NCBI GenBank assembly: GCA_964585925.1
Contig: CAZPFS010000003.1
Location: forward strand, 17,619 to 81,618
Direction of reading: 5' to 3'
Length of the DNA stretch: 64,000 bases
Source: an uncultured Syntrophomonadaceae bacterium
GTDB taxonomy: Bacteria > Bacillota > Dethiobacteria > DTU022
The notes below the pieces were generated by a model. That model was not told where the DNA came from. It searched no databases and saw nothing but the letters and a program-made list of their open reading frames with translations. Each line of letters begins with the position of its first letter. Position 1 is the stretch's first letter. Positions 1 to 48,987 of the stretch are shown piece after piece. Both the position numbers and the translations under genes were made by a program.

Positions 1-746
1 CCGCCTCCCGTAATATGCGCCGCCCCGGTTATGGCAAATTTCCGGAACAGGGGTTTTACCGCCTGGACATAGATCCGGGTGGGCTTCAGAAGCTCCTCTC
101 CCAGCGAAATCTTCCACCCCGGAGGTATTTCCCCCAGCCCCAAGCCGGATTCATCGGGCAGCACTCGCCTGGCCAGGGAATAACCGTTGCTGTGCAGCCC
201 GGTGGAAGAGAGGCCGATCACCTTATCCCCCGCCGAGATGCCGGAACCGTCGATCAAAAAATCCTTTTCTACTATTCCCACCGCAAATCCGGCCAGGTCG
301 TACTCCCCTTCCGGATAAAACCCGGGCATCTCGGCAGTCTCCCCGCCCAGCAGTGCGCAGCCGGCCAGCCGGCAGCCCTCGGCTACTCCCGAAACTACTC
401 TTTCCACCTGATCGGCTATCAGCTTCCCCACCGCCAGATAATCGAGGAAGAAGAGAGGTTCCGCCCCCTGAGCCAGTATATCATTGACGCACATGGCCAC
501 GCAGTCCTGTCCCACCGTGTCATGCCTGTTCAGAACAAAGGCCAATTTCAGCTTAGTTCCCACCCCGTCGCACCCGGCCACCAGTACCGGGGAACGGAGG
601 CCGGCCAGATCCGGTGCAAACAGACCCCCGAACCCCCCCAGCCCTCCCAGAACCTCCCGGCGGAAAGTGGAGGCGGCCAGGCCCCTGATCCGGTCCACTG
701 CTTTATTCCCGGCCTCAATATCCACCCCGGCCTGCCGGTAACTCAT
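1..746 (-). CDS. purM: Phosphoribosylformylglycinamidine cyclo-ligase (AIR synthetase) PurM. The ATG is at 746-744 and the gene runs off the left edge, so the C-terminus is missing.
   Basis: Minus-strand translation begins [58 protein letters not shown], the classic PurM N-terminus and motifs. GAGGAA RBS upstream. The listed plus-strand ORF 15..854 is its low-complexity antisense artefact. Confidence 0.85.
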
Positions 747-846
747 TTCCTCGTGGTTCAAAAGGCACCTCCCGAAACTGGCTATTCAAGATCCCCCCGG
801 GGACTGTCTTCTCATTCAACACTGCTTTACCCCGGACGCTTCAACC

Positions 847-1056
847 GGGGATAGACCTATCTTGCAGGTCTGTCCCCATACCCTATACTTCCAACCGGGA
901 ACAATCCCATCTGGCAAGTCCGTTCCCATACACCCAATCGGGGATAGACCCATCCGGCAGGTATGTCCCCATACATCCAACCGAGGACAGACCCATCCGG
1001 CAGGTATGTCCCCATACATCCAATCGGGGACAGACCTATCTTGCAGGCCTGTCCCC
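847..1056. repeat. REP-like array of five palindromic hairpin units (ggggaYagacc-N9-ggtMtgtcccc) spaced about 42-51 bp, between purM and the hppA 3' end
   Basis: Units at 847-877, 898-927 (degenerate), 940-970, 985-1013 and 1026-1056. Each unit has 10-11 bp inverted arms with a 9-nt loop, separated by atacatccaatc-type linkers. Confidence 0.8.
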
Positions 1057-1061
1057 AGACC

Positions 1062-3020
1062 CTAGAAAAACAGCGGCGCAAACACCAACGCCACGATGCT
1101 CATCAGCTTGATCAGAATATTCAGAGAGGGCCCGGAGGTATCCTTGAACGGGTCGCCCACCGTGTCACCTACTACCGCTGCCCTGTGGGGATCGCTGCCC
1201 TTTCCACCGTACTCCCCGCCCTCGATATATTTCTTGGCATTGTCCCAGGCTCCGCCGGCATTGGCCATGTAGATCGCCTGCAGCACCCCGGTCACCAGGG
1301 AACCGGCCAGCACTCCGCCCAGGGCCTCCTTGCCCAGAAACGGGATCAGCCCTACCGCCAGCGGCACGGCCACCGCCAGTACCCCCGGGACGATCATTTC
1401 CTTCAAGGCCGCTTTCGTGCTGATATCGACACAGCGGGCATATTCCGGCCGGGCGGTGCCCTCCATCAGGCCGGGAATTTCTTTAAACTGGCGCCGGATC
1501 TCCTCGATCAGCTCGAAAGCCGCATTTCCCACCGCCTCCATGGTGCGGGCGGTAAAGAAGAAGATCAACACCCCGCCGATGAACATGCCGGCAATAACTT
1601 TGTCACTGAGAATGTTGATTGTGTCCAGACCCGCCACCTGAGAATAGGCGGTAAACAAGGCCAGTGCGGTCAGAGCCGCCGAACCGATGGCAAACCCCTT
1701 GCCAATGGCCGCGGTGGTATTGCCCACTGCGTCCAGTTGATCCGTGATCTCCCGCACCTCCGGCTCCAGATCGGCCATCTCGGAGATTCCGCCGGCGTTA
1801 TCGGCCACCGGGCCGTAGGCATCCACGGCCACGGTCATCCCCACCGTGGAGAGCATCCCCACCGCGGCAATGGCTATCCCGTAAACATCCGCCAGTTGAT
1901 AAGATACTATAATTGCCACCACGATCGCCAGCACCGGGATCAGGGTGCTTTTCATCCCCACCGAGAGGCCGCTGATGATGTTGGTAGCCGGGCCGGTCTG
2001 GGAGGCCCTGGCAATATTTTTGACCGGACGGTAATCACCGGAGGTGTAATATTCGGTAACCTTGCCGATCACTACCCCTGCCAGCAAGCCGGCCACTACC
2101 GCCCAGAAGGGCCCCAGATCGCCCAAAACCTCCCTGGTGATAAAAAATGAAACCACCAGGACGATCAGTGCGCTGACCGTGATTCCCCGCTCCAGCACCG
2201 CGCCCAGGCGGGCGCCTTCTTTGGCCCGCACAAAGAAGAAAGCGATCACCGAGGCAATAATCCCCACCGAGGCCACCAGCAGCGGCAATAAAACCCCGCC
2301 CGCCCCGTGAGCCAGGACCCCCACAGTCATTGCTGCGATCAGGGAACCCACGTAAGACTCAAACAGGTCGGCCCCCATGCCGGCCACATCCCCCACATTG
2401 TCGCCCACGTTATCGGCAATCACTCCCGCGTTGCGGGGATCGTCTTCAGGGATGCCGGCCTCGATCTTTCCCACCAGGTCCGAACCCACATCGGCAGCCT
2501 TGGTAAAGATGCCGCCCCCTACCCGGGCAAATAAAGCGATGGAACTGGCCCCCAGGGCGTAGCCGTTGACGATGGCCGGATTTTGGATAAAGATATATAA
2601 AATGCTCAGACCCAGTAACCCCAACCCGGCCACCATCATCCCCATGATGGTTCCGCTGGAGAAAGCCAGGGTCAGCGCCCGGCCCACTCCTTCACGGGCC
2701 GACTGGGCGGTGCGGACATTGGCCTCCGTGGCCACCCGCATGCCTATGTAACCCGCCGCCGCCGACAGGAAGGCGCCCACCACAAAACTCAGCGCGGTCA
2801 GGGGATTGATGGCTAAAAAGAGTACGGCACCCAGGATAATCACAAAGAAAACCAGGTAGAAGTACTCGCGTTTGATGAAGGCCATCGCCCCCTCCTGGAT
2901 GGCACCGGCAATTTCCAGCATGGCGGGGGTGCCCGATTCCGCAGATTTTACTTTGAACCATAACCATAATGCAAATAACAAAGCCAGGATAGCGCATACA
3001 GGCGCCAGGTAAAGATTCAT
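1062..3020 (-). CDS. hppA: Membrane-bound H+/Na+-translocating pyrophosphatase
   Basis: 652-aa polytopic protein with the hallmark V-PPase motifs [27 protein letters not shown] and [21 protein letters not shown]. Confidence 0.9.
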
Positions 3021-3130
3021 TTTAACAAGCCTACCTCCTCGTAATCAGACACTTACCATCTACCGTTTGATTGTTTATCTGATCGGGTTCCGGTTAACCC
3101 GTAAAGCCAGACCTGATCCTCGTGTCGCCA

Positions 3131-3180
3131 AAATACAGGCGGACAGAGTCGTCCTTTCGGGCGGACAGAGTCGTCCGCCC
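3131..3180 (-). terminator. Probable rho-independent terminator after purF: a GC hairpin (gggcggac-agagtc-gtccgccc, plus a tandem half-repeat) followed on the minus strand by tgtatttt
   Basis: Direct repeat ggcggacagagtcgtcc x2. An 8-bp GC stem sits immediately 3' of the purF stop, and the transcribed strand shows a U-tract. Confidence 0.5.
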
Positions 3181-4578
3181 CTACTTGGGTCTGCCCGCCG
3201 GGTAATCCCCGCCAAAACAGGACCAGCAGAGATGCTCCGCCGGCAGGCCGATGGCCTCCGCCACCCCCTGCGGGCTTAAAAAGCCTACCGAGTCGGCCTC
3301 GATCATTTGGGCCACCTCTTCGGCGGTGCGGTTTGCCAGCATCAGCTCCTCATCGCCGGGCATGTCAATGCCGTAATAGCAGGACGAAACGACCGGGGGA
3401 GAGCTAATCCTCAGGTGCACTTCTTTAGCCCCCGCCCGGCGCATCAGCCGGACCAGTTTTAAGCTGGTGGTGCCCCGAACAATGGAGTCGTCCACCAGAA
3501 CCACCTTCTTGTTCTGAACGATTTTCTGCACCGCATTGAGCTTGATGTCAGTTCCCCGTTCCCGGAGTTCCCGGGTGGGTTTGATAAAAACCCTTCCTAT
3601 GTATCGGTTTTTCACCAGGGCCATCTCGTTGGGCAGACCCAGTTGCTCGGCATATCCGGAGGCGGCGGAAATGCTGGAATCGGGAACCCCGGAGACCAGG
3701 TCCGCCTCCACCGGCTGTTCCCGGGCCAGCCGACGGCCCAGTTCCCGGCGCACCAGATGAACATTTTTCCCCTGCAGGTTGCTGTCCGGGCGGGCAAAAT
3801 AAATATATTCAAACACACAGAAAGCGGAACGGAAGCTGCTCACCAGCTGCCGGGAATGCATCCCTTCGCGGTCAAGCACCACCATCTCCCCCGGGTTGAC
3901 ATCCCGGATAAATGCAGCCCCCATGGTATCAAAAGCACAGGTTTCGGAGGCCAGATAGTAGCCTTTCTCACCCAAGGCGGCCAGTGATAAGGGGCGGAAA
4001 CCGTAGCCGTCCCGCAGGCCGATCACCTTTTGTCCGTCGGTAATCACAAAACTAAAGGCGCCTTTGAGCAGGGGCACCACTTGCGCCAGCGCTTCTTCCA
4101 GATCGGGGGCGCCCTGGCGGGCAATCAGATGAGCCAACAGCTCGCTGTCGGTGCGGGTCTGAAAAATGGCCCCTTTCGCCTCCAGCTCGGATCTGAGCCG
4201 GGATCCGTTCAAAAGTCGGCCGTTGTGGCCGACAGCCAGTTCCCCAAAACGGTACCTGAGCACAAGGGGTTGGCTGCTCTCCAGGCGGCGATCTTCTCCC
4301 TGATACGAATAACGGACATGTCCCACCGCGGCGCGGCTGGAAATGGTCTTTAAATCGGTAATCTTTGCAAACACTTCGGAAACCAGGCCCAGCCCCCGGT
4401 GGTGCCACAACCGCCCCCCCCGGCCGTCTCCGGCAGCAATCCCGGCACTCTCCTGCCCGCGATGCTGGAGGGCGTACAGGGCCAGGCAGGTCAGGTAGGC
4501 CAGCGGCAGCCCGGTGGCATAACCGCCACAGATGCCGCAGGCCTCGCGCAGCATTGGATAATCTAACTCATCAGGCAC
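3181..4578 (-). CDS. purF: Amidophosphoribosyltransferase (glutamine PRPP amidotransferase)
   Basis: Propeptide then the catalytic Cys (..MLREACGICGGYAT..), a PRTase motif VVLVDDSIVRGTT, and a C-terminal 4Fe-4S Cys cluster (CWSCFGGDYP). Confidence 0.9.
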   Translation of the reverse strand: MPDELDYPMLREACGICGGYATGLPLAYLTCLALYALQHRGQESAGIAAGDGRGGRLWHHRGLGLVSEVFAKITDLKTISSRAAVGHVRYSYQGEDRRLESSQPLVLRYRFGELAVGHNGRLLNGSRLRSELEAKGAIFQTRTDSELLAHLIARQGAPDLEEALAQVVPLLKGAFSFVITDGQKVIGLRDGYGFRPLSLAALGEKGYYLASETCAFDTMGAAFIRDVNPGEMVVLDREGMHSRQLVSSFRSAFCVFEYIYFARPDSNLQGKNVHLVRRELGRRLAREQPVEADLVSGVPDSSISAASGYAEQLGLPNEMALVKNRYIGRVFIKPTRELRERGTDIKLNAVQKIVQNKKVVLVDDSIVRGTTSLKLVRLMRRAGAKEVHLRISSPPVVSSCYYGIDMPGDEELMLANRTAEEVAQMIEADSVGFLSPQGVAEAIGLPAEHLCWSCFGGDYPAGRPK

Positions 4579-6752
4579 CCGATACCCTCCCTGTAAATAC
4601 GGCCGATCTCCTCAAGCGCCAGATTGACCACCGGCCTGCCGTTATAATTGATCAGCAGCTTCTCTTCGCCCACCGACCCCAGTTCGGTCAGGGGGATATT
4701 ATATTCTTTGGCCAGGGCCGCCAGTTTATCCTGCTTTTCCGGCTTCACCGAGACCAGCACCCGGGAAGGACCTTCTCCAAACAGGGCCGCCGGGGGGTTG
4801 TCCTCGCCGGAAAAAGAGACCGTGGCCCCTTTTTTCCCCCGCAAACAACATTCGGCCAGGGTTACCGCCAGCCCCCCTTCGGAAAGATCGTGGGCTGAAC
4901 TCAAAATTTTTTCAGAGATAACCCGGCAAAGCATTTCCTGGAGCGCTTTTTCCAGCTCCAGATCTATCTCCGCCAGCAGTCCGGCCACCCGGTCATGACA
5001 GACTCTCAGGTAAAGGCTTCCTCCCAGGGAGACCCCGGAAGGCCCCAACAAATAGATTATATCGGAACTGCAGTTAAAAGCAATTTGGCAGCTTTTCTCC
5101 GGATCTTCCAACAACCCCACCGCCCCCACCACCGGCGTAGGATAGACAGCTTTTCCGTTTACCTCGTTGTAAAGGCTGACGTTGCCGCCAACCACCGGCA
5201 CCCCCAGAGCCCGGCAGGCCTCGGCCACTCCCTCAATAGTTCGCCTGAGCTGCCAGTATATATCCGGTCTCTCGGGATTTCCAAAATTCAGGCCGTCGGT
5301 AATTCCCAGGGGTCTGGCCCCCACACAGGCCAGGTTGCGGGTGGCCTCGGCTACCACCAGCATCCCCCCCAGATATGGATCCAGATAAACCAGGCGACTG
5401 TTGCCATCTACAGTAACCGCGATTGCCTGGCCCGTTTCGGGAAGCAGAATGATCCCCGCTTCCTCTCCCGGCCCCTGGGCAACCTGATGGTTTTCGGGAT
5501 CTTTGAACTGTTCCCAGATCCATTCCCGGCTCGCGCCATGGACCGAGCCGAGCAGCTTTTTCAAAACCGGGCCAAGGTCCGTCTCTGTCGGCAGCTGCTC
5601 CGGATCAAACCTTGCCAGTTGCCGATAGTACCGCGGTTCCTGTATTGCCGGAGAGTACTGCGGAGCGCCGCCGGCCACGCCGGCGGCCGGCACCTCCGCC
5701 ACCACCCGGCCCCGGTAAATGATCCGCACCAGATGATCGTCCGTCACCTTGCCGATTACATTAAAATGGAGGCCCCGTCTGGTAAAAATTTCGGCCGCCT
5801 CCCGCTCATGTTCCGGATCGAGCACCACCATCATCCTTTCCTGCGATTCGGAAATGGCGATCTCGTAATCCTCCATATTATCCGCTTTCAGCGGCACTGC
5901 GTCCAAGGTAATCTCCATTCCGGTTTCCGCCCGGGAGGCCATCTCGGTAGCGGCACAGGTGATCCCGGCAGCGCCCAGATCCTGCATACCCAGGGCCAGC
6001 TTCTTTCCGGCCAGCTCCAGGCAGGCTTCCATCAGCAGTTTTCCGGCCGCGGGATCTCCTATATGCATCGCCGTGTCCGTCTCCGGGGCCAGCTCTCCCG
6101 AAGCAAAGGTGGCCCCGTGAACACCGTCCCGGCCGGTGGGGGCGCCGGCCAGGGCCACCAGTTTTCCGGGCTCGGCAGCCTTCCCCCGGATCAACTGCTC
6201 TACCGGCAAAACCCCCACGCACATGGCATTGACCAGAGGGTTACCCTCGTAACAGTCTTCAAATGCGGCCTCCCCGGCCGCCACCGGAAGCCCCAGGCCG
6301 TTGCCGTAACCGGCCACCCCGGCTACAATCCCCTTGAACAGGTAACGACTGCGGGCGCTGCCAAGAGGGCCCAGCCTCAGTGAATTGACCAGGGCCACCG
6401 GCCTGGCCCCCATGGTGAATATATCTCTGACAATACCGCCCACCCCGGTGGCCGCCCCCTGGTAGGGGTCCACCGCCGAGGGGTGGTTATGGCTCTCAAT
6501 TTTAAAAGCCACCGCCCACCCCCGGCCCAGATCGATCACTCCCGCATTCTCTCCGGGCCCCTGCAAAACCCGTTCCCCGGTAACCGGGAAGAGGCGCAGA
6601 GATGATCTGGAGTGTTTATAGCTGCAATGTTCCGACCACATCACACTGAACATACTCAGTTCACAGTAATTTGGTTCCCGCCCCATCTCCCGGCAGATCA
6701 CCATGTATTCCTCGGCGCTCAGGCCCAGCCTCAACCATGGTTTATCTTCCAA
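4563..6752 (-). CDS. purL: Phosphoribosylformylglycinamidine synthase II (FGAM synthase large subunit)
   Basis: 729 aa. N-terminus MEDKPWLRLGLSAEEY..EPNYCELSMFSVMWSEHCSYKHS and duplicated AIRS-like domains typical of PurL. Overlaps purF by 16 nt. Confidence 0.9.
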   Translation of the reverse strand: MEDKPWLRLGLSAEEYMVICREMGREPNYCELSMFSVMWSEHCSYKHSRSSLRLFPVTGERVLQGPGENAGVIDLGRGWAVAFKIESHNHPSAVDPYQGAATGVGGIVRDIFTMGARPVALVNSLRLGPLGSARSRYLFKGIVAGVAGYGNGLGLPVAAGEAAFEDCYEGNPLVNAMCVGVLPVEQLIRGKAAEPGKLVALAGAPTGRDGVHGATFASGELAPETDTAMHIGDPAAGKLLMEACLELAGKKLALGMQDLGAAGITCAATEMASRAETGMEITLDAVPLKADNMEDYEIAISESQERMMVVLDPEHEREAAEIFTRRGLHFNVIGKVTDDHLVRIIYRGRVVAEVPAAGVAGGAPQYSPAIQEPRYYRQLARFDPEQLPTETDLGPVLKKLLGSVHGASREWIWEQFKDPENHQVAQGPGEEAGIILLPETGQAIAVTVDGNSRLVYLDPYLGGMLVVAEATRNLACVGARPLGITDGLNFGNPERPDIYWQLRRTIEGVAEACRALGVPVVGGNVSLYNEVNGKAVYPTPVVGAVGLLEDPEKSCQIAFNCSSDIIYLLGPSGVSLGGSLYLRVCHDRVAGLLAEIDLELEKALQEMLCRVISEKILSSAHDLSEGGLAVTLAECCLRGKKGATVSFSGEDNPPAALFGEGPSRVLVSVKPEKQDKLAALAKEYNIPLTELGSVGEEKLLINYNGRPVVNLALEEIGRIYREGIGCLMS

Positions 6753-6857
6753 CTGCCGCCACCTCCTTGCTATAGTCCTGCCGCCCTTGTGGTACTGCTG
6801 GCGCCCGTTCAGGCCGCCCCTTCATAAACCTGGAGCCTTTTTTTAAACCGGGCCCGA

Positions 6858-7340
6858 TCAGGAACCCCTGAGCTGCCGGTCCGCCTCCTCCACCTTCGCC
6901 GCCAGCTTCTGGCGATAGGCGGCCAATTTTTCCTGCAACCGTTCATTTCCCAGGGAAAGTATATGTACCGCCAGCAATCCCGCATTATAAGCGGCATCTA
7001 TCCCCACCGTGGCCACGGGCACTCCCCGCGGCATCTGGATTATTGAGTAAAGTGAATCCAGCCCATTCAGATGCGCAGCGGCCACCGGCACACCGATCAC
7101 CGGCAATATGGTCATAGAGGCGATTACCCCCGGCAGGTGAGCCGCCCCTCCCGCGCCGGCAATTATGATCTTGATTCCGGCATCCGCCGCCGCCTTTGCA
7201 TAACGGGCCACCTTCTCCGGATGGCGATGGGCGCTGGCAATAACCAGTTCATAACTGACCCCAAACTCCGTAAGCGCCGCCGCACTCTGTTTCATCACCT
7301 CCAGATCCGATCCGCTGCCCATTACTATCCCTACATCCAC
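6858..7340 (-). CDS. purE: N5-carboxyaminoimidazole ribonucleotide mutase
   Basis: 160 aa. [49 protein letters not shown] is the canonical PurE fold. No purK is adjacent. Confidence 0.9.
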
Positions 7341-7395
7341 ATCTGTTCCTCCTTAAATCGTGATCGACTGAACCCGTATTATTTTAGCATATTCA

Positions 7396-7624
7396 TCAAG
7401 GCGAGGACAGATCAATGAGAACACAATGGGGACCATACAATGGGGACAGACCTATCATGCAGGTCTGTCCCCATACCTTGGATCATGCAGGTCTGTCCCC
7501 ATACCTTGGATCATGCAGGTCTGTCCCCATACCTTGGATCATGCAGGTCTGTCCCCAGAAAAAGGGGACAGACCTATCTTGCAGATCCGTCCCCATACCT
7601 TAAATCTTACAGGTCTGTCCCCCA
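7396..7624. repeat. Second REP-like array between the groEL 3' end and the purE start. It holds two full hairpin units (7443-7473, 7565-7595) plus three to four tandem 28-bp half-units (ataccttggatcatgcaggtctgtcccc).
   Basis: The same ggggacagacc / ggtctgtcccc arms as the 847..1056 array. The period-28 direct repeats run 7474-7557 with no unique spacers. Confidence 0.8.
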
Positions 7625-7629
7625 GACCT

Positions 7630-9255
<1,626 letters not shown>

Positions 9256-9604: not shown

Positions 9605-9634
9605 TTAGCAGCACTCCCTGTAACCGAGTGCTAA
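9605..9634 (-). promoter_or_regulatory. CIRCE operator (HrcA binding site) in the groES leader
   Basis: ttagcaGCACTC-cctgtaacc-GAGTGCTAA matches the TTAGCACTC-N9-GAGTGCTAA consensus, with a 3-nt insertion in the left arm and a perfect 7-bp core inverted repeat at N9 spacing. It lies between the -10 and the SD of groES. Confidence 0.75.
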
Positions 9635-12675: not shown

Positions 12676-13211
12676 GTATGGCCTTACTGGCAAATCTGTT
12701 CTGGTCTTACTTCAAGATAGGTCTGTTCAGCTTTGGGGGGGGTTATGCCATGATCCCCCTGATGGAATCAGAGATCATAGCCCGTCACGGCTGGCTGACG
12801 GCATCGGAATTCATTGACATCATCGCCATTGCAGAAACCACCCCGGGTCCCATCGCCGTAAACTCGGCCACCTATGTGGGCTTTCGGCTGGCTGGAATTA
12901 CCGGTTCCGCCGTGGCCACCATCGGGGTTGTGTCCCCTTCACTGATCATTCTCCTGGCGCTGGGTTCCTTCCTGATGAATACCACAAGGCTGAAAACGCC
13001 CCCCGTGGACAGTGCTATGCGGGGGCTGCGCCCGGCGGTGATCGTTCTTATTTTGCTGGCGGTGATCTCCCTAGGCGAGGCCGGCCTGGTGGACCGGGCT
13101 ACCATTGCTATCGCCTCCGCCCTGTTCCTCAGCAGCATCATCTTCAAAATCAATCCATTCATTCTGATCGCGGCGGGAGCGGTGCTGGGACTTATTTTTT
13201 ATCCGTACTGA
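12672..13211 (+). CDS. chrA: Short-chain chromate transporter family protein, second half
   Basis: MSMALLANLFWSYFKIGLFSFGGGYAMIPL. RBS AAAGGAG 6 nt upstream of the ATG at 12672. The tracked ORF start at 12630 is probably too early. Confidence 0.7.
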   Translation: MSMALLANLFWSYFKIGLFSFGGGYAMIPLMESEIIARHGWLTASEFIDIIAIAETTPGPIAVNSATYVGFRLAGITGSAVATIGVVSPSLIILLALGSFLMNTTRLKTPPVDSAMRGLRPAVIVLILLAVISLGEAGLVDRATIAIASALFLSSIIFKINPFILIAAGAVLGLIFYPY

Positions 13212-23221: not shown

Positions 23222-23269
23222 GTAAGGGGGCGGACCGGGGCGTCCGCTCCTACCTGTTTCCGCCTTCTT

Positions 23270-44920: not shown

Positions 44921-45715
44921 TCAGGGCAGGAAATGCAACACCGCCTCCAGCACACCTCCTCCCACGGCTCGGGCCTTGTCGGAGATGGACCGGAAGTCAA
45001 CCTCCGCCCCTCGGGGATCTACATCTCCCACCTTCATTCCCTTGCTTGCCGGGAGGCCATTATAGAGCAGACCCCGCACCAGACCGTCGGTTCCCGCCGC
45101 CACGGGAATGCGGCCTACCTCCGCCACCGGCTGGCCCGTTTCAACCAAATCGCCAATTTTGACCAGAGCTTTGAATATCCCATCCGCCGGCGCCCGGAGA
45201 AGCCTTCCCGCCGCCACCCCGGAAACCCCCCCCGGAATACCGGTATTTTCGGCAGCGCTTCCCTGGTAATATACTTTTCCCAGATCGTGCCCGCGCTTGG
45301 TCTCTATTACGGCGTGAACCTCCTGCCCGGCTTCAAATCCCGGCCCCAGTCCGATTACCACCCGGGCATCGCCGATCCTGGTGGTGGTGGCTGTTTTGGC
45401 CATTACCGCATCCACCAGCACCTCCGGCTGAAGTTTCTGCACCAGGCAAGACTCCGGATCGATCAGCACTGCTATCTCCCGGCCATCGATCACCCGGTAA
45501 GCCTCCTCCGCCGTGGCACAAAGCCTGGCCCGAACCCCTTCCACCTCAAAAAGCCCTTCATACACTGCCGAGGAAAAGGCTACTGTGCGCCTCACTGTGA
45601 GGGGCCGGGGAAGTTCCAGCATGATCTGCCGGAAACCGGCCCTGTGCAGGCGGTGTGCCACCCCCGAAGCCAGGTCCCCCGCTCCCCTGATAATTACCGT
45701 CTGTGAAAATTTCAT
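44921..45715 (-). CDS. Rossmann-like SDMH accessory protein (YqeB / EF2563-family-like, TIGR03309-type)
   Basis: 264 aa. N-terminus VIIRGAGDLASGVAHRLHRAGF. It is the first gene of the minus-strand accessory operon, and its family assignment is from memory. The plus-strand ORF 44933..45706 is judged to be the antisense artefact. Confidence 0.5.
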   Translation of the reverse strand: MKFSQTVIIRGAGDLASGVAHRLHRAGFRQIMLELPRPLTVRRTVAFSSAVYEGLFEVEGVRARLCATAEEAYRVIDGREIAVLIDPESCLVQKLQPEVLVDAVMAKTATTTRIGDARVVIGLGPGFEAGQEVHAVIETKRGHDLGKVYYQGSAAENTGIPGGVSGVAAGRLLRAPADGIFKALVKIGDLVETGQPVAEVGRIPVAAGTDGLVRGLLYNGLPASKGMKVGDVDPRGAEVDFRSISDKARAVGGGVLEAVLHFLP

Positions 45716-45743: not shown

Positions 45744-45774
45744 TTGTCGCCATGGGGATAGGCCTGGGCTTAAG
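45744..45774. repeat. Solitary degenerate REP-like unit (ggggataggcctgggcttaagatatgtcccc)
   Basis: It shares the ggggatag... / ...atgtcccc arms with the units at 940-970 and 985-1013. Confidence 0.5.
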
Positions 45775-45809
45775 ATATGTCCCCGCGATTTGGTAACCCC
45801 TATTTGTTT

Positions 45810-46100
45810 TCCTTTGAGTAAATCCCTTTAAATCCCCCTAAATCCCCCTTTAAAAAAGGGGGACTTTTTCGGCTGCCCCTTTAAAAAAGGATGCCTCTTG
45901 GATTATCATCTGGAATAAATTGCCTCACTGCCCTTTTAAAAAGGGATACCTTTTTTGGCTTATCACTTATCATTTAAAATGAATTGCCTCACCTTGCTCT
46001 TTTATTAATAAGAAGGATTTGTTTTGCTTACTCCTTAAAAAGACTTAATTGCCTCACCTTGCCCTTTTATGGGGGGACTTTTTCGGCTGCCCCTTTAAAA
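45810..46100. repeat. Repeat-dense AT-rich intergenic block with about six copies of the inverted repeat CCCCTTT-AAA-AAAGGGG, two copies of gggggactttttcggctg, three copies of aattgcctcacYtg, and a triple aaatcccYtt direct repeat
   Basis: Copies at 45834-45852, 45866-45880, 45921-45935, ~45990-46006 (degenerate), 46051-46066 (variant) and 46083-46097. It lies upstream of the SDMH accessory operon and downstream of the xdh operon. Confidence 0.7.
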
Positions 46101-46151
46101 AAGGGGGCCGGCTTCTTTCATTTTTATCCCTTTCGCCGTAAATCTAAAAAT

Positions 46152-48574: not shown

Positions 48575-48987
48575 AGGTTGCCGCTCAGCGCCTCGCTGAT
48601 CTCCTCATCATCCGGATTGGGGTTCCGGTTTAACAGGGCCCGGGCTGAAATAATCACCCCCGGCGTGCAGTAGCCGCATTGAAAGGCGGCGTGATCGATA
48701 AATGCCCGCTGAACCCGATCCAGCTCTCCATTTTTAGCCAGCCCTTCAATGGTTACCAACTCTTTCCCTTCCAGCTCCGCCGCCAGCACCAGGCATGAGT
48801 TTATCGGCACCTCATTCAACAGCACCATACAGGCGCCGCACTCCCCTACCTCGCATCCTTCCTTGGTTCCGGTAAGTTTCAGCTCTTCCCGGATGAAGTT
48901 GAGAAGGGTCTGCTGGGGACAGACCTCCCGGATCTCCTTCATACCGTTAACAGTAAATGAAATGGTCAGCTTTCCGGACATGAGCAC
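48517..48987 (-). CDS. Xanthine dehydrogenase-family [2Fe-2S] small subunit
   Basis: Plant-type ferredoxin Cys motif ([12 protein letters not shown]) and a second 2Fe-2S motif (CGYCTPG...CRCGAY). 156 aa. Confidence 0.9.

Follow-up and report, generated by a model that had tools for sequence, protein, structure and literature searches.

The mycobacterial MIRUs are direct tandem units of 40–50 nt that occupy dispersed intergenic sites in operons, are oriented with transcription, abut the upstream stop codon and vary in copy number among strains; they are not strong palindromes and may encode small peptides. The pneumococcal BOX elements are reportedly built as boxA-boxB(n)-boxC, with a module of about 45 nt repeated head-to-tail in variable number, and are said to form stable RNA structures. 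MITEs, i.e., terminal inverted repeats around an internal segment, are usually 100–400 bp long and are accompanied by a target-site duplication. The class closest to the repeats described here, the REPs, is defined by a short palindromic unit with a stem of 5–13 bp and a loop of 2–20 nt (PMC3733652, Table 1). Most REPs are found downstream of a coding region, with flanking ORFs that are unidirectional or convergent, and tandem-reiterated clusters are known; among the catalogued GTAG REPs, a head-to-tail arrangement is under-represented (PMC3733652). In their survey, Di Nocera et al. (2013, PMC3733652) list GTAG repeats for Proteobacteria, Cyanobacteria, Chloroflexi and the PVC superphylum, and for no other group. 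BIMEs and REPINs are pairs of REPs in inverse orientation (PMC3479197, PMC3337134), and, according to the part of PMC12306157 that summarises Liang et al. 2015, REPs of E. coli lower translation when fewer than 16 nt separate them from a stop codon.

Here, we describe two arrays of hairpin repeats, one behind hppA (array 1) and one behind groEL (array 2), in a 64,000-nt stretch of DNA from an uncultured Syntrophomonadaceae bacterium, which we call the window. Our analysis favors the view, to which we give a probability of about 65%, that these are members of a REP-like family of small non-coding repeats in a clade of uncultured Bacillota, with rare dispersal, local tandem growth and a role as RNA 3′ hairpins. 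The preliminary description of this DNA had proposed a REP-like family at gene 3′ ends, and this holds up, in that the repeats are dispersed, extragenic and hairpin-forming, and lie directly 3′ of hppA and groEL and, in relatives, of uppP.

With the GTAG REPs, the unit shares its range of stem and loop sizes, an extragenic location just downstream of genes with co-directional neighbors, and absence from coding sequence, together with a conserved non-pairing tag at one foot of the hairpin, occasional tandem reiteration, a presence that varies among relatives and a hairpin that is plausibly active as RNA. It differs from them in that the foot reads GTAT or GTAA and not GTAG, which places this family (family 1) outside the GTAG-foot definition, in that the arrays in the window are strictly head-to-tail, and in that the host belongs to the Bacillota, a phylum absent from the 2013 catalogue. 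GTAG REPs typically number tens to thousands per genome; here we count two arrays and one relic in 64 kb. As in BIMEs and REPINs, clusters of REP hairpins with short conserved linkers are found in intergenic spacers, including spacers inside operons, but every full unit here has the same orientation. The label “BIME-type”, which had also been applied to these repeats, does not fit, since all seven full units run head-to-tail on one strand and BIMEs need inverse pairs (PMC3479197).

The arrays resemble the BOX elements in organization only, i.e., both are intergenic repeats of Firmicutes with a tandem module of about 45 nt in variable number; they differ in that no boxA- or boxC-like terminal modules were seen here, and in that each unit here is itself a hairpin. 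Direct tandem units, dispersed intergenic sites with a location inside an operon, an orientation with transcription, abutment to the upstream stop codon and a variable copy number are shared with the MIRUs, and we know of no sequence relation between these and our unit. We rejected a MITE, the unit being only a hairpin of 43–45 nt with no duplicated flanks at its junctions in the window or in two contigs from relatives (L097 and L105), and also a CRISPR array, which would have unique spacers between identical repeats and cas genes close by, as the linkers are themselves repeated and no cas domains were found in the window.

Results

Anatomy and folding of the repeat unit

The window contains seven full hairpins of 31 nt with stems of 11–13 bp, five in array 1 and two in array 2. 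Searching for GGGGACAGACC-N9-GGTCTGTCCCC with up to three mismatches returned matches at 847, 940, 983, 1026, 7442 and 7564, where none is expected (100 shuffles). Read on the gene-sense strand, each unit of about 43–45 nt consists of a non-pairing foot (A)GGTAW, the hairpin GGGGACAGACC-TGCAAGATA-GGTCTGTCCCC and a tail GATTRG. An alignment on the sense (minus) strand, for which we took ten units of four independent loci, gave the consensus AAGGTAT-GGGGACAGACC-TGCAAGATA-GGTCTGTCCCC-GnTTGGA, where the G-T-A of the 5′ foot is nearly invariant over independent loci and the fourth base is not G (the foot is GTAT in the window, GTAA in L097, L094 and L105, and GTCT in the first unit of array 1, u1). 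The core stem of 11 bp extends to 13 bp with U-A and G-U pairs, and the loop measures 5–9 nt.

The core ggggacagacc-N9-ggtctgtcccc had been described as a hairpin with an 11-bp stem, and this hairpin is real: five units, among them u1 and u5 of array 1 and hairpins A and B of array 2, fold strongly as sense RNA (−18 to −24 kcal/mol, z −4.7 to −7.2), with weak folding in the inner units of array 1. The sense strand folds more stably than the antisense strand (u1, −23.5 vs −17.9 kcal/mol; hairpin A, −20.8 vs −11.6 kcal/mol), and in the 11-bp core the non-Watson-Crick cells comprise 9 G-U and 7 unpaired cells in the sense direction and 3 G-U and 13 unpaired cells in the antisense direction. This asymmetry of wobble pairs (9 of 12, p about 0.07, with units that are not independent of each other) is suggestive only. 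Overall, 94.6% of the cells pair, and there is a single compensatory change, which is located in u4.

A covariance model of the unit scored the seven full units at 40–68 bits on the minus strand (four of them also register on the plus strand, at 17–25 bits), and detected nothing else in the window below E 0.06. All seven run head-to-tail on the minus strand and so share the orientation of the genes upstream of them. GC skew is negative over the whole plus strand, which makes the minus strand the leading strand as well, and the orientation bias could therefore stem from replication and not from transcription.

In our Rfam searches, the window had no match that reached gathering score and the two arrays had none even at E up to 1; no Rfam family at all, purine riboswitches included, was detected along the window. 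Nothing similar to the unit was found in collections of plasmid, phage and viral contigs, and a literature search for the 11-mers returned unrelated primer sequences only. No target-site duplication or clean pair of empty and filled sites could be defined, and no Y1/RAYT or other transposase was found among the 55 window ORFs scanned with Pfam, where a REPtron of the GTAG REPs would have a cognate RAYT (TnpA-REP) gene flanked by the repeats. No homologue of the translated array ORFs was found among 5.8 billion proteins, and they belong to no Pfam family; since, in addition, neither period (43 and 28 nt) is a multiple of three, we regard the ORFs in the repeats as artefacts, as the preliminary description already did.

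Array 1, between hppA and purM

On the minus strand, the gene order is groES-groEL, array 2, purE-purL-purF-hppA, array 1 and purM. Array 1 (847–1061, minus strand) lies between the H+-pyrophosphatase gene hppA upstream (1062–3020, minus strand) and the 5′ part of purM downstream (1–761, minus strand; TTG start at 759–761), which runs off the window. Both arrays start 0 nt past the upstream stop codon (groEL, TAA-AGGTCTGGGGGACAGACC; hppA, TAG-GGTCTGGGGACAGGCC). An ORF of 279 aa on the plus strand (15–854), whose apparent end lies inside the first repeat, was rejected as spurious, as it is antisense to purM and matches no Pfam family. Because the real gene at 15–854 is purM on the minus strand, array 1 is located between co-directional, not convergent, genes; the spurious ORF could mislead annotation into placing it between convergent ones.

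Five full units follow the hppA stop codon (1062–1064), including a degenerate one at 897–927, just as had been reported earlier. They are arranged head-to-tail with a period of 43 nt, each consisting of a hairpin and a linker of about 12 nt (GATTGGATGTAT), with the hairpins spanning 847–1056 and the foot of the first hairpin 5 nt past the stop; Tandem Repeats Finder reports a period of 43 with 4.1 copies and 81% matches for 881–1057. The two outer units are the best preserved by folding, with u1 (hairpin GGGGACAGGCCTGCAAGATAGGTCTGTCCCC, 1026–1056) scoring 67.7 bits with the covariance model and u5 (847–877) close to consensus at −17.9 kcal/mol. The three inner units, u2–u4, are eroded (−10 to −14 kcal/mol, z −0.3 to −1.6): u2 (983–1013) folds at −13.6 kcal/mol and u3 (940–970) at −10.8 kcal/mol, and u4 (897–927) is the most diverged unit and carries the sole compensatory double change, from G-C to A-U. 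An 85-nt spacer (762–846, minus strand), which has no counterpart in relatives and contains no promoter-like site, leads from the array to the ribosome-binding site and TTG start of purM. No U-tract follows the hairpins of array 1 and no intrinsic terminator site was found within it; as these hairpins are without a U-tract and purM lies downstream in the same operon, array 1 cannot be a terminator.

Array 2, between groEL and purE

Array 2 (7396–7629, minus strand) occupies the spacer between groEL upstream (7630–9255, minus strand) and purE downstream (6858–7340, minus strand), extending from 0 nt past the groEL TAA (7630–7632) to just upstream of the pur promoter; the genes purE-purL-purF (3181–7340, minus strand) lie between it and hppA. 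It had been taken for a run of units of about 45 bp, and actually consists of two full hairpins (7442–7472 and 7564–7594) and four 28-nt half units bearing one arm, half of the loop and the linker. Reading from groEL, the first, partial unit (7595–7629) has the foot AGGTCT, a 5′ arm, half a loop and a linker, and is without a 3′ arm; the fourth, diverged 28-nt half unit is found here (7595–7622). Hairpin A (7564–7594, or 7557–7594 with the TTTTTCT that follows it) has 13 pairs, including 2 G-U, on the sense strand, and is the only terminator-like site downstream of groEL (7594–7564 in minus-strand direction). The pattern of a rho-independent terminator fits only this hairpin with its TTTTTCT, the other six full units being without a U-tract. 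Next come three identical 28-nt half units (7473–7556), each with a 5′ arm, TGCATGAT and CCAAGGTAT and with the 3′ arm missing, for which Tandem Repeats Finder reports a period of 28 with 3.7 copies and 100% matches (7454–7557); they look like recent slippage copies. Hairpin B (7442–7472), with a perfectly palindromic stem (−24.1 kcal/mol), and a degenerate remnant of further units (7396–7441, with GAGGACAGATC at 7403–7413 and GGGGACCATAC) complete the array. The independent Logan contigs L001 and L095 both end within 7473–7556, and both edges of array 2 are exactly reproduced by them.

Just downstream of array 2 lies the extended −10 box of the pur operon promoter (TGCTAAAAT, 7381–7389, minus strand), which is kept in the relatives L096, L099 and L103, with L097 having TAAAAT without TG. 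The pur operon leader behind this box is short (7341–7395). Upstream of groES, a CIRCE-like inverted repeat, GCAGCACTC-N9-GAGTGCTAA (9608–9634), represents the expected HrcA operator. We rejected a CIRCE operator (TTAGCACTC-N9-GAGTGCTAA, located upstream of groES or dnaK) as an identity for the repeats themselves, which differ from it in sequence and sit downstream of groEL, the true CIRCE being the one at 9608–9634.

An eroded copy elsewhere in the window

We treat the sequence at 45754–45784, in a spacer 39 nt upstream of a gene starting at 45715, as an eroded relic of one unit, of uncertain orientation. Its arms differ from GGGGAYAGACC-N9-GGTMTGTCCCC at two positions, with 0.03 sites of four or fewer mismatches expected per window; pairing between the arms is lost (z −0.4), and the covariance model gives 9 bits (E 2.4). 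A solitary copy had earlier been placed at 45744–45774: the family arms are indeed recognizable, but the position has to be corrected and the hairpin is lost. Half-site matches at 12710–12741, 48915–48925, 24971, 42111 and 52779 were discarded, as they lie in coding sequence, are at chance level (1.6 per window) and give no hit with the covariance model. The family content of the 64-kb window is then two arrays and one relic, and further loci were found only in relatives (about 150 kb read).

The neighborhood of the relic contains other features. Four CCCCTTTAAAAAAGGGG(G) hairpins are clustered at 45845–46113, two of which (45858–45895 and 46072–46109, 38 nt) are 95% identical, in a 480-nt spacer downstream of the gene for the large subunit of a molybdenum hydroxylase and adjoining the relic. 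The surrounding region, at about 41200–62000, is a cluster for purine/oxamate catabolism with YqeC/MobA-like, XdhC and MoCF-biosynthesis genes, genes for a three-subunit molybdenum hydroxylase, for AllG/AllH-type oxamate carbamoyltransferase subunits, a cyclase, a CoA ligase and carbamate kinase, and for a PucR regulator, a xanthine/uracil permease, an OTCase-like protein and a CoA-transferase.

The groEL and pur genes in relatives

We compared the window with contigs of uncultured Bacillota found via GroEL (91–94% protein identity, 81–86% groEL DNA identity). Most of these relatives are devoid of the repeats. Two of them, L096 and L099, keep the order groES-groEL-purE-purL-purF-hppA-purM without the repeats. 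The gap between hppA and purM measures 10 nt in L096, 49 nt in L099 and 300 nt in the window, and the gap of only 10 nt in L096 implies co-transcription of the two genes. The position of hppA between purF and purM is conserved in relatives that are 74–81% DNA-identical over the region (1–7340 of the window, 6902–14247 of L096 and 4864–13285 of L099); the presence of hppA inside the pur operon is, judging from these gene orders, ancestral. The repeats had been thought to mark the junction where hppA is interposed; since L096 and L099 have hppA at this position without repeats, its insertion is older than array 1 and unrelated to it. The spacer between purF and hppA in L096 (11090–11200) contains its own, different G-rich repeated hairpins (gggggaaaggggaccggcaaccaagtcccctttcc; gatgggggag... 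twice), and intergenic hairpin repeats of several kinds seem to be common in the clade.

Between groEL and purE, the gap is 128 nt in L096 and 162 nt in L099, with a canonical terminator inside it (caggctgct...agcagcctgcttttt). This groEL terminator, cagg[ct]aggctgct...agcagcct[ga]cttttt, is present in all six relatives examined (L096, L097, L098, L099, L103 and L104) and absent from the window. In L097 and L104, whose groEL DNA is only about 85% identical to that of the window, the native terminator is followed by one unit (aaggtaaGGGGACAGACCtgcaagcttaGGTCTGTCCCCgattagg) in the same place and orientation as array 2. The family is thus not species-specific, as had been suggested, the unit being found both in these two contigs and at uppP of other MAGs.

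Our scan of metagenomes identified a single contig with the unit, L094, in which two tandem units start 7 nt past the uppP stop codon. Four contigs with a UppP 99% identical to that of L094 (L105–L108) have one unit, i.e., a 45-nt indel relative to L094 at 97.2% DNA identity, and a diverged orthologous unit is present after uppP in L109 (78% DNA identity; 15.6 bits, E 0.003). These copies sit between uppP and ftsK. Taken together, the unit is present in six other assemblies and at unlinked sites, after groEL, hppA and uppP, with the relic in a fourth spacer. Units are always extragenic, either 0–8 nt past an upstream stop codon or just behind a terminator, and all units that can be assigned to a strand are in sense orientation, the eroded relic alone being uncertain. 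Copy number differs among relatives, with none, one or an array after groEL and one vs two after uppP. From the comparisons at groEL and uppP, we conclude that the family is clade-level, in part old and vertically inherited and in part recently gained, and variable in copy number.

Other hairpin families

The window also contains a second hairpin family with a true GTAG tag, GTAG-GGGCGGAC-N6-GTCCGCCC. One copy, whose GTAG includes the TAG stop codon of purF and which is followed by a partial duplication of 20 nt, is at 3159–3184 (minus strand), and another at 23228–23253 (minus strand), 17 nt past the stop codon of an ABC-F gene. This family also occurs at 5950–5971 of L098 and 4304–4325 of L095. 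In L098, whose GroEL is identical to that of L097, it is inverted and located just behind the groEL terminator, i.e., at the spot taken by the family-1 unit in L097 and L104, which points to the post-terminator spot being an insertion hot spot. With a second, GTAG-tagged family present, it becomes more credible that this clade has a REP-type system.

A scan of genome contigs found the arms GGGGACAGACC/GGTCTGTCCCC only in unrelated taxa, with other loops. In these loci (L002–L093), the arms are part of multi-copy hairpin families with longer stems and different loops, and the hosts are two Ferrovaceae, Proteobacteria LL6.bin58, an “Enterobacteriaceae” binchicken MAG, Desulfofustis and Treponema. 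About ten of the copies have the hairpin precisely at the center of a perfect palindrome whose outer arms (18–48 nt) are copy-specific; such palindromes might be explained by nested repeats, by foldback elements or by assembly artefacts. Examples of arm-family loci are L082 3013, L051 5533, L022 6661, L020 3033 and L088 5696. Between paired hairpins in the Ferrovaceae loci, we found housekeeping ORFs only and no RAYT.

Discussion

The family described here is a new addition to the REP-type bacterial repeats, and a real but fairly ordinary feature of its hosts. We propose that a unit would arrive at a site by a rare dispersal event and would then multiply locally by slipped-strand or unequal recombination, with the identical 28-nt half units of array 2 as the presumed freshest case. 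Transcription of the upstream gene would run into the units, which would form the 3′ end of its message and fold into very stable hairpins, and, going by their folding and location, they probably act as an RNA 3′ hairpin or terminator. Hairpin A, together with its U-tract, would now be the intrinsic terminator of groESL in place of the ancestral one; it is very probably used, because the ancestral terminator has been lost and nothing else is in place.

A function as 3′ mRNA stabilizer or terminator, as given in the preliminary description for the repeats in general, is consequently plausible where hairpin A and TTTTTCT replace the terminator of the relatives, but termination does not extend to array 1, in which U-tracts are absent. 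Array 1 must let transcription reach purM, as it is without U-tracts and inside the pur operon, and its hairpins would most likely be intercistronic barriers to 3′–5′ exonucleases or partial attenuators, as described for REPs. The effect would be to uncouple the levels of purF-hppA from that of purM. Located 1–8 nt from stop codons, the hairpins would also fall inside the range of less than 16 nt within which E. coli REPs lower translation, going by the summary in PMC12306157.

The weakest step in this scheme is the agent of dispersal, which would probably be a single-strand Y1/HUH enzyme with specificity for hairpins, of the RAYT or IS200 type. What suggests such a candidate is that the non-pairing 5′ foot is conserved and the strandedness strict, as in substrates of RAYT/IS200-type Y1 enzymes (PMC3479197).

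The repeats could instead be selfish or neutral, without any function for the host, and owe their persistence only to the tolerance of spacers behind stop codons; the terminator-like appearance of hairpin A would then be incidental. The decay of the inner units of array 1 (z −0.3 to −1.6), the erosion of the copy at 45754, the finding of one compensatory change only and the fact that relatives do well without the repeats all agree with this. However, the ancestral groEL terminator is gone, with hairpin A and its U-tract alone in its place, and the element persists at the uppP site over lineages that are 78% DNA-identical, so that we consider a complete lack of function unlikely.

A wider origin for the repeats is conceivable from the arms shared with unrelated taxa, which may be no coincidence: all these families would be substrates of one horizontally spreading lineage of hairpin-specific HUH/Y1 enzymes, and, within a mobile hairpin system that crosses phyla, the arrays in the window would form the branch of the Bacillota. 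Group 1 RAYTs span Proteobacteria and Clostridia (PMC5581495). We regard this extension of the REP-like reading as highly doubtful.

It is also very improbable that there is no mobile family, and that the arrays arose purely from a terminator-type hairpin duplicated locally at each site, or through gene conversion between two sites 6.4 kb apart. Growth by slippage is evident, both in the perfect 28-nt copies and in the one vs two units after uppP, and only two arrays are present in 64 kb; but the same foot, loop and tail recur on other contigs behind uppP and, in a lineage with 85% DNA identity, behind groEL, where the unit stands beside the native terminator and does not replace it, and the native terminators of the relatives are unrelated to the unit in sequence. 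Scarcely plausible are arrays of DNA operators for a regulator of purine genes: although both arrays lie upstream of pur genes (purE and purM) and an inverted repeat spaced by N9 resembles operators such as CIRCE, relatives have the same pur operon without the repeats, other copies are located between uppP and ftsK, the conserved pur −10 box is downstream of the array and not inside it, and the true CIRCE (9608–9634) is elsewhere. We give next to no credence to an assembly artefact or protein-coding sequence, as, although short-read contigs break inside array 2, leaving the copy number of the 28-nt repeat without independent confirmation, and ORFs cross the arrays, its edges are reproduced by L001 and L095, six other assemblies contain the unit as well, and the translations are without homologues or Pfam families, with periods (43 and 28 nt) that are not multiples of three.

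The REP-like family that we favor, together with the second, GTAG-tagged family, adds two families to a clade of uncultured Bacillota, a phylum for which the REP catalogue (PMC3733652) lists none. Arrays of this kind break short-read assemblies and yield spurious ORFs, and a model of the unit would improve the annotation of such MAGs. [quoted passage not shown]
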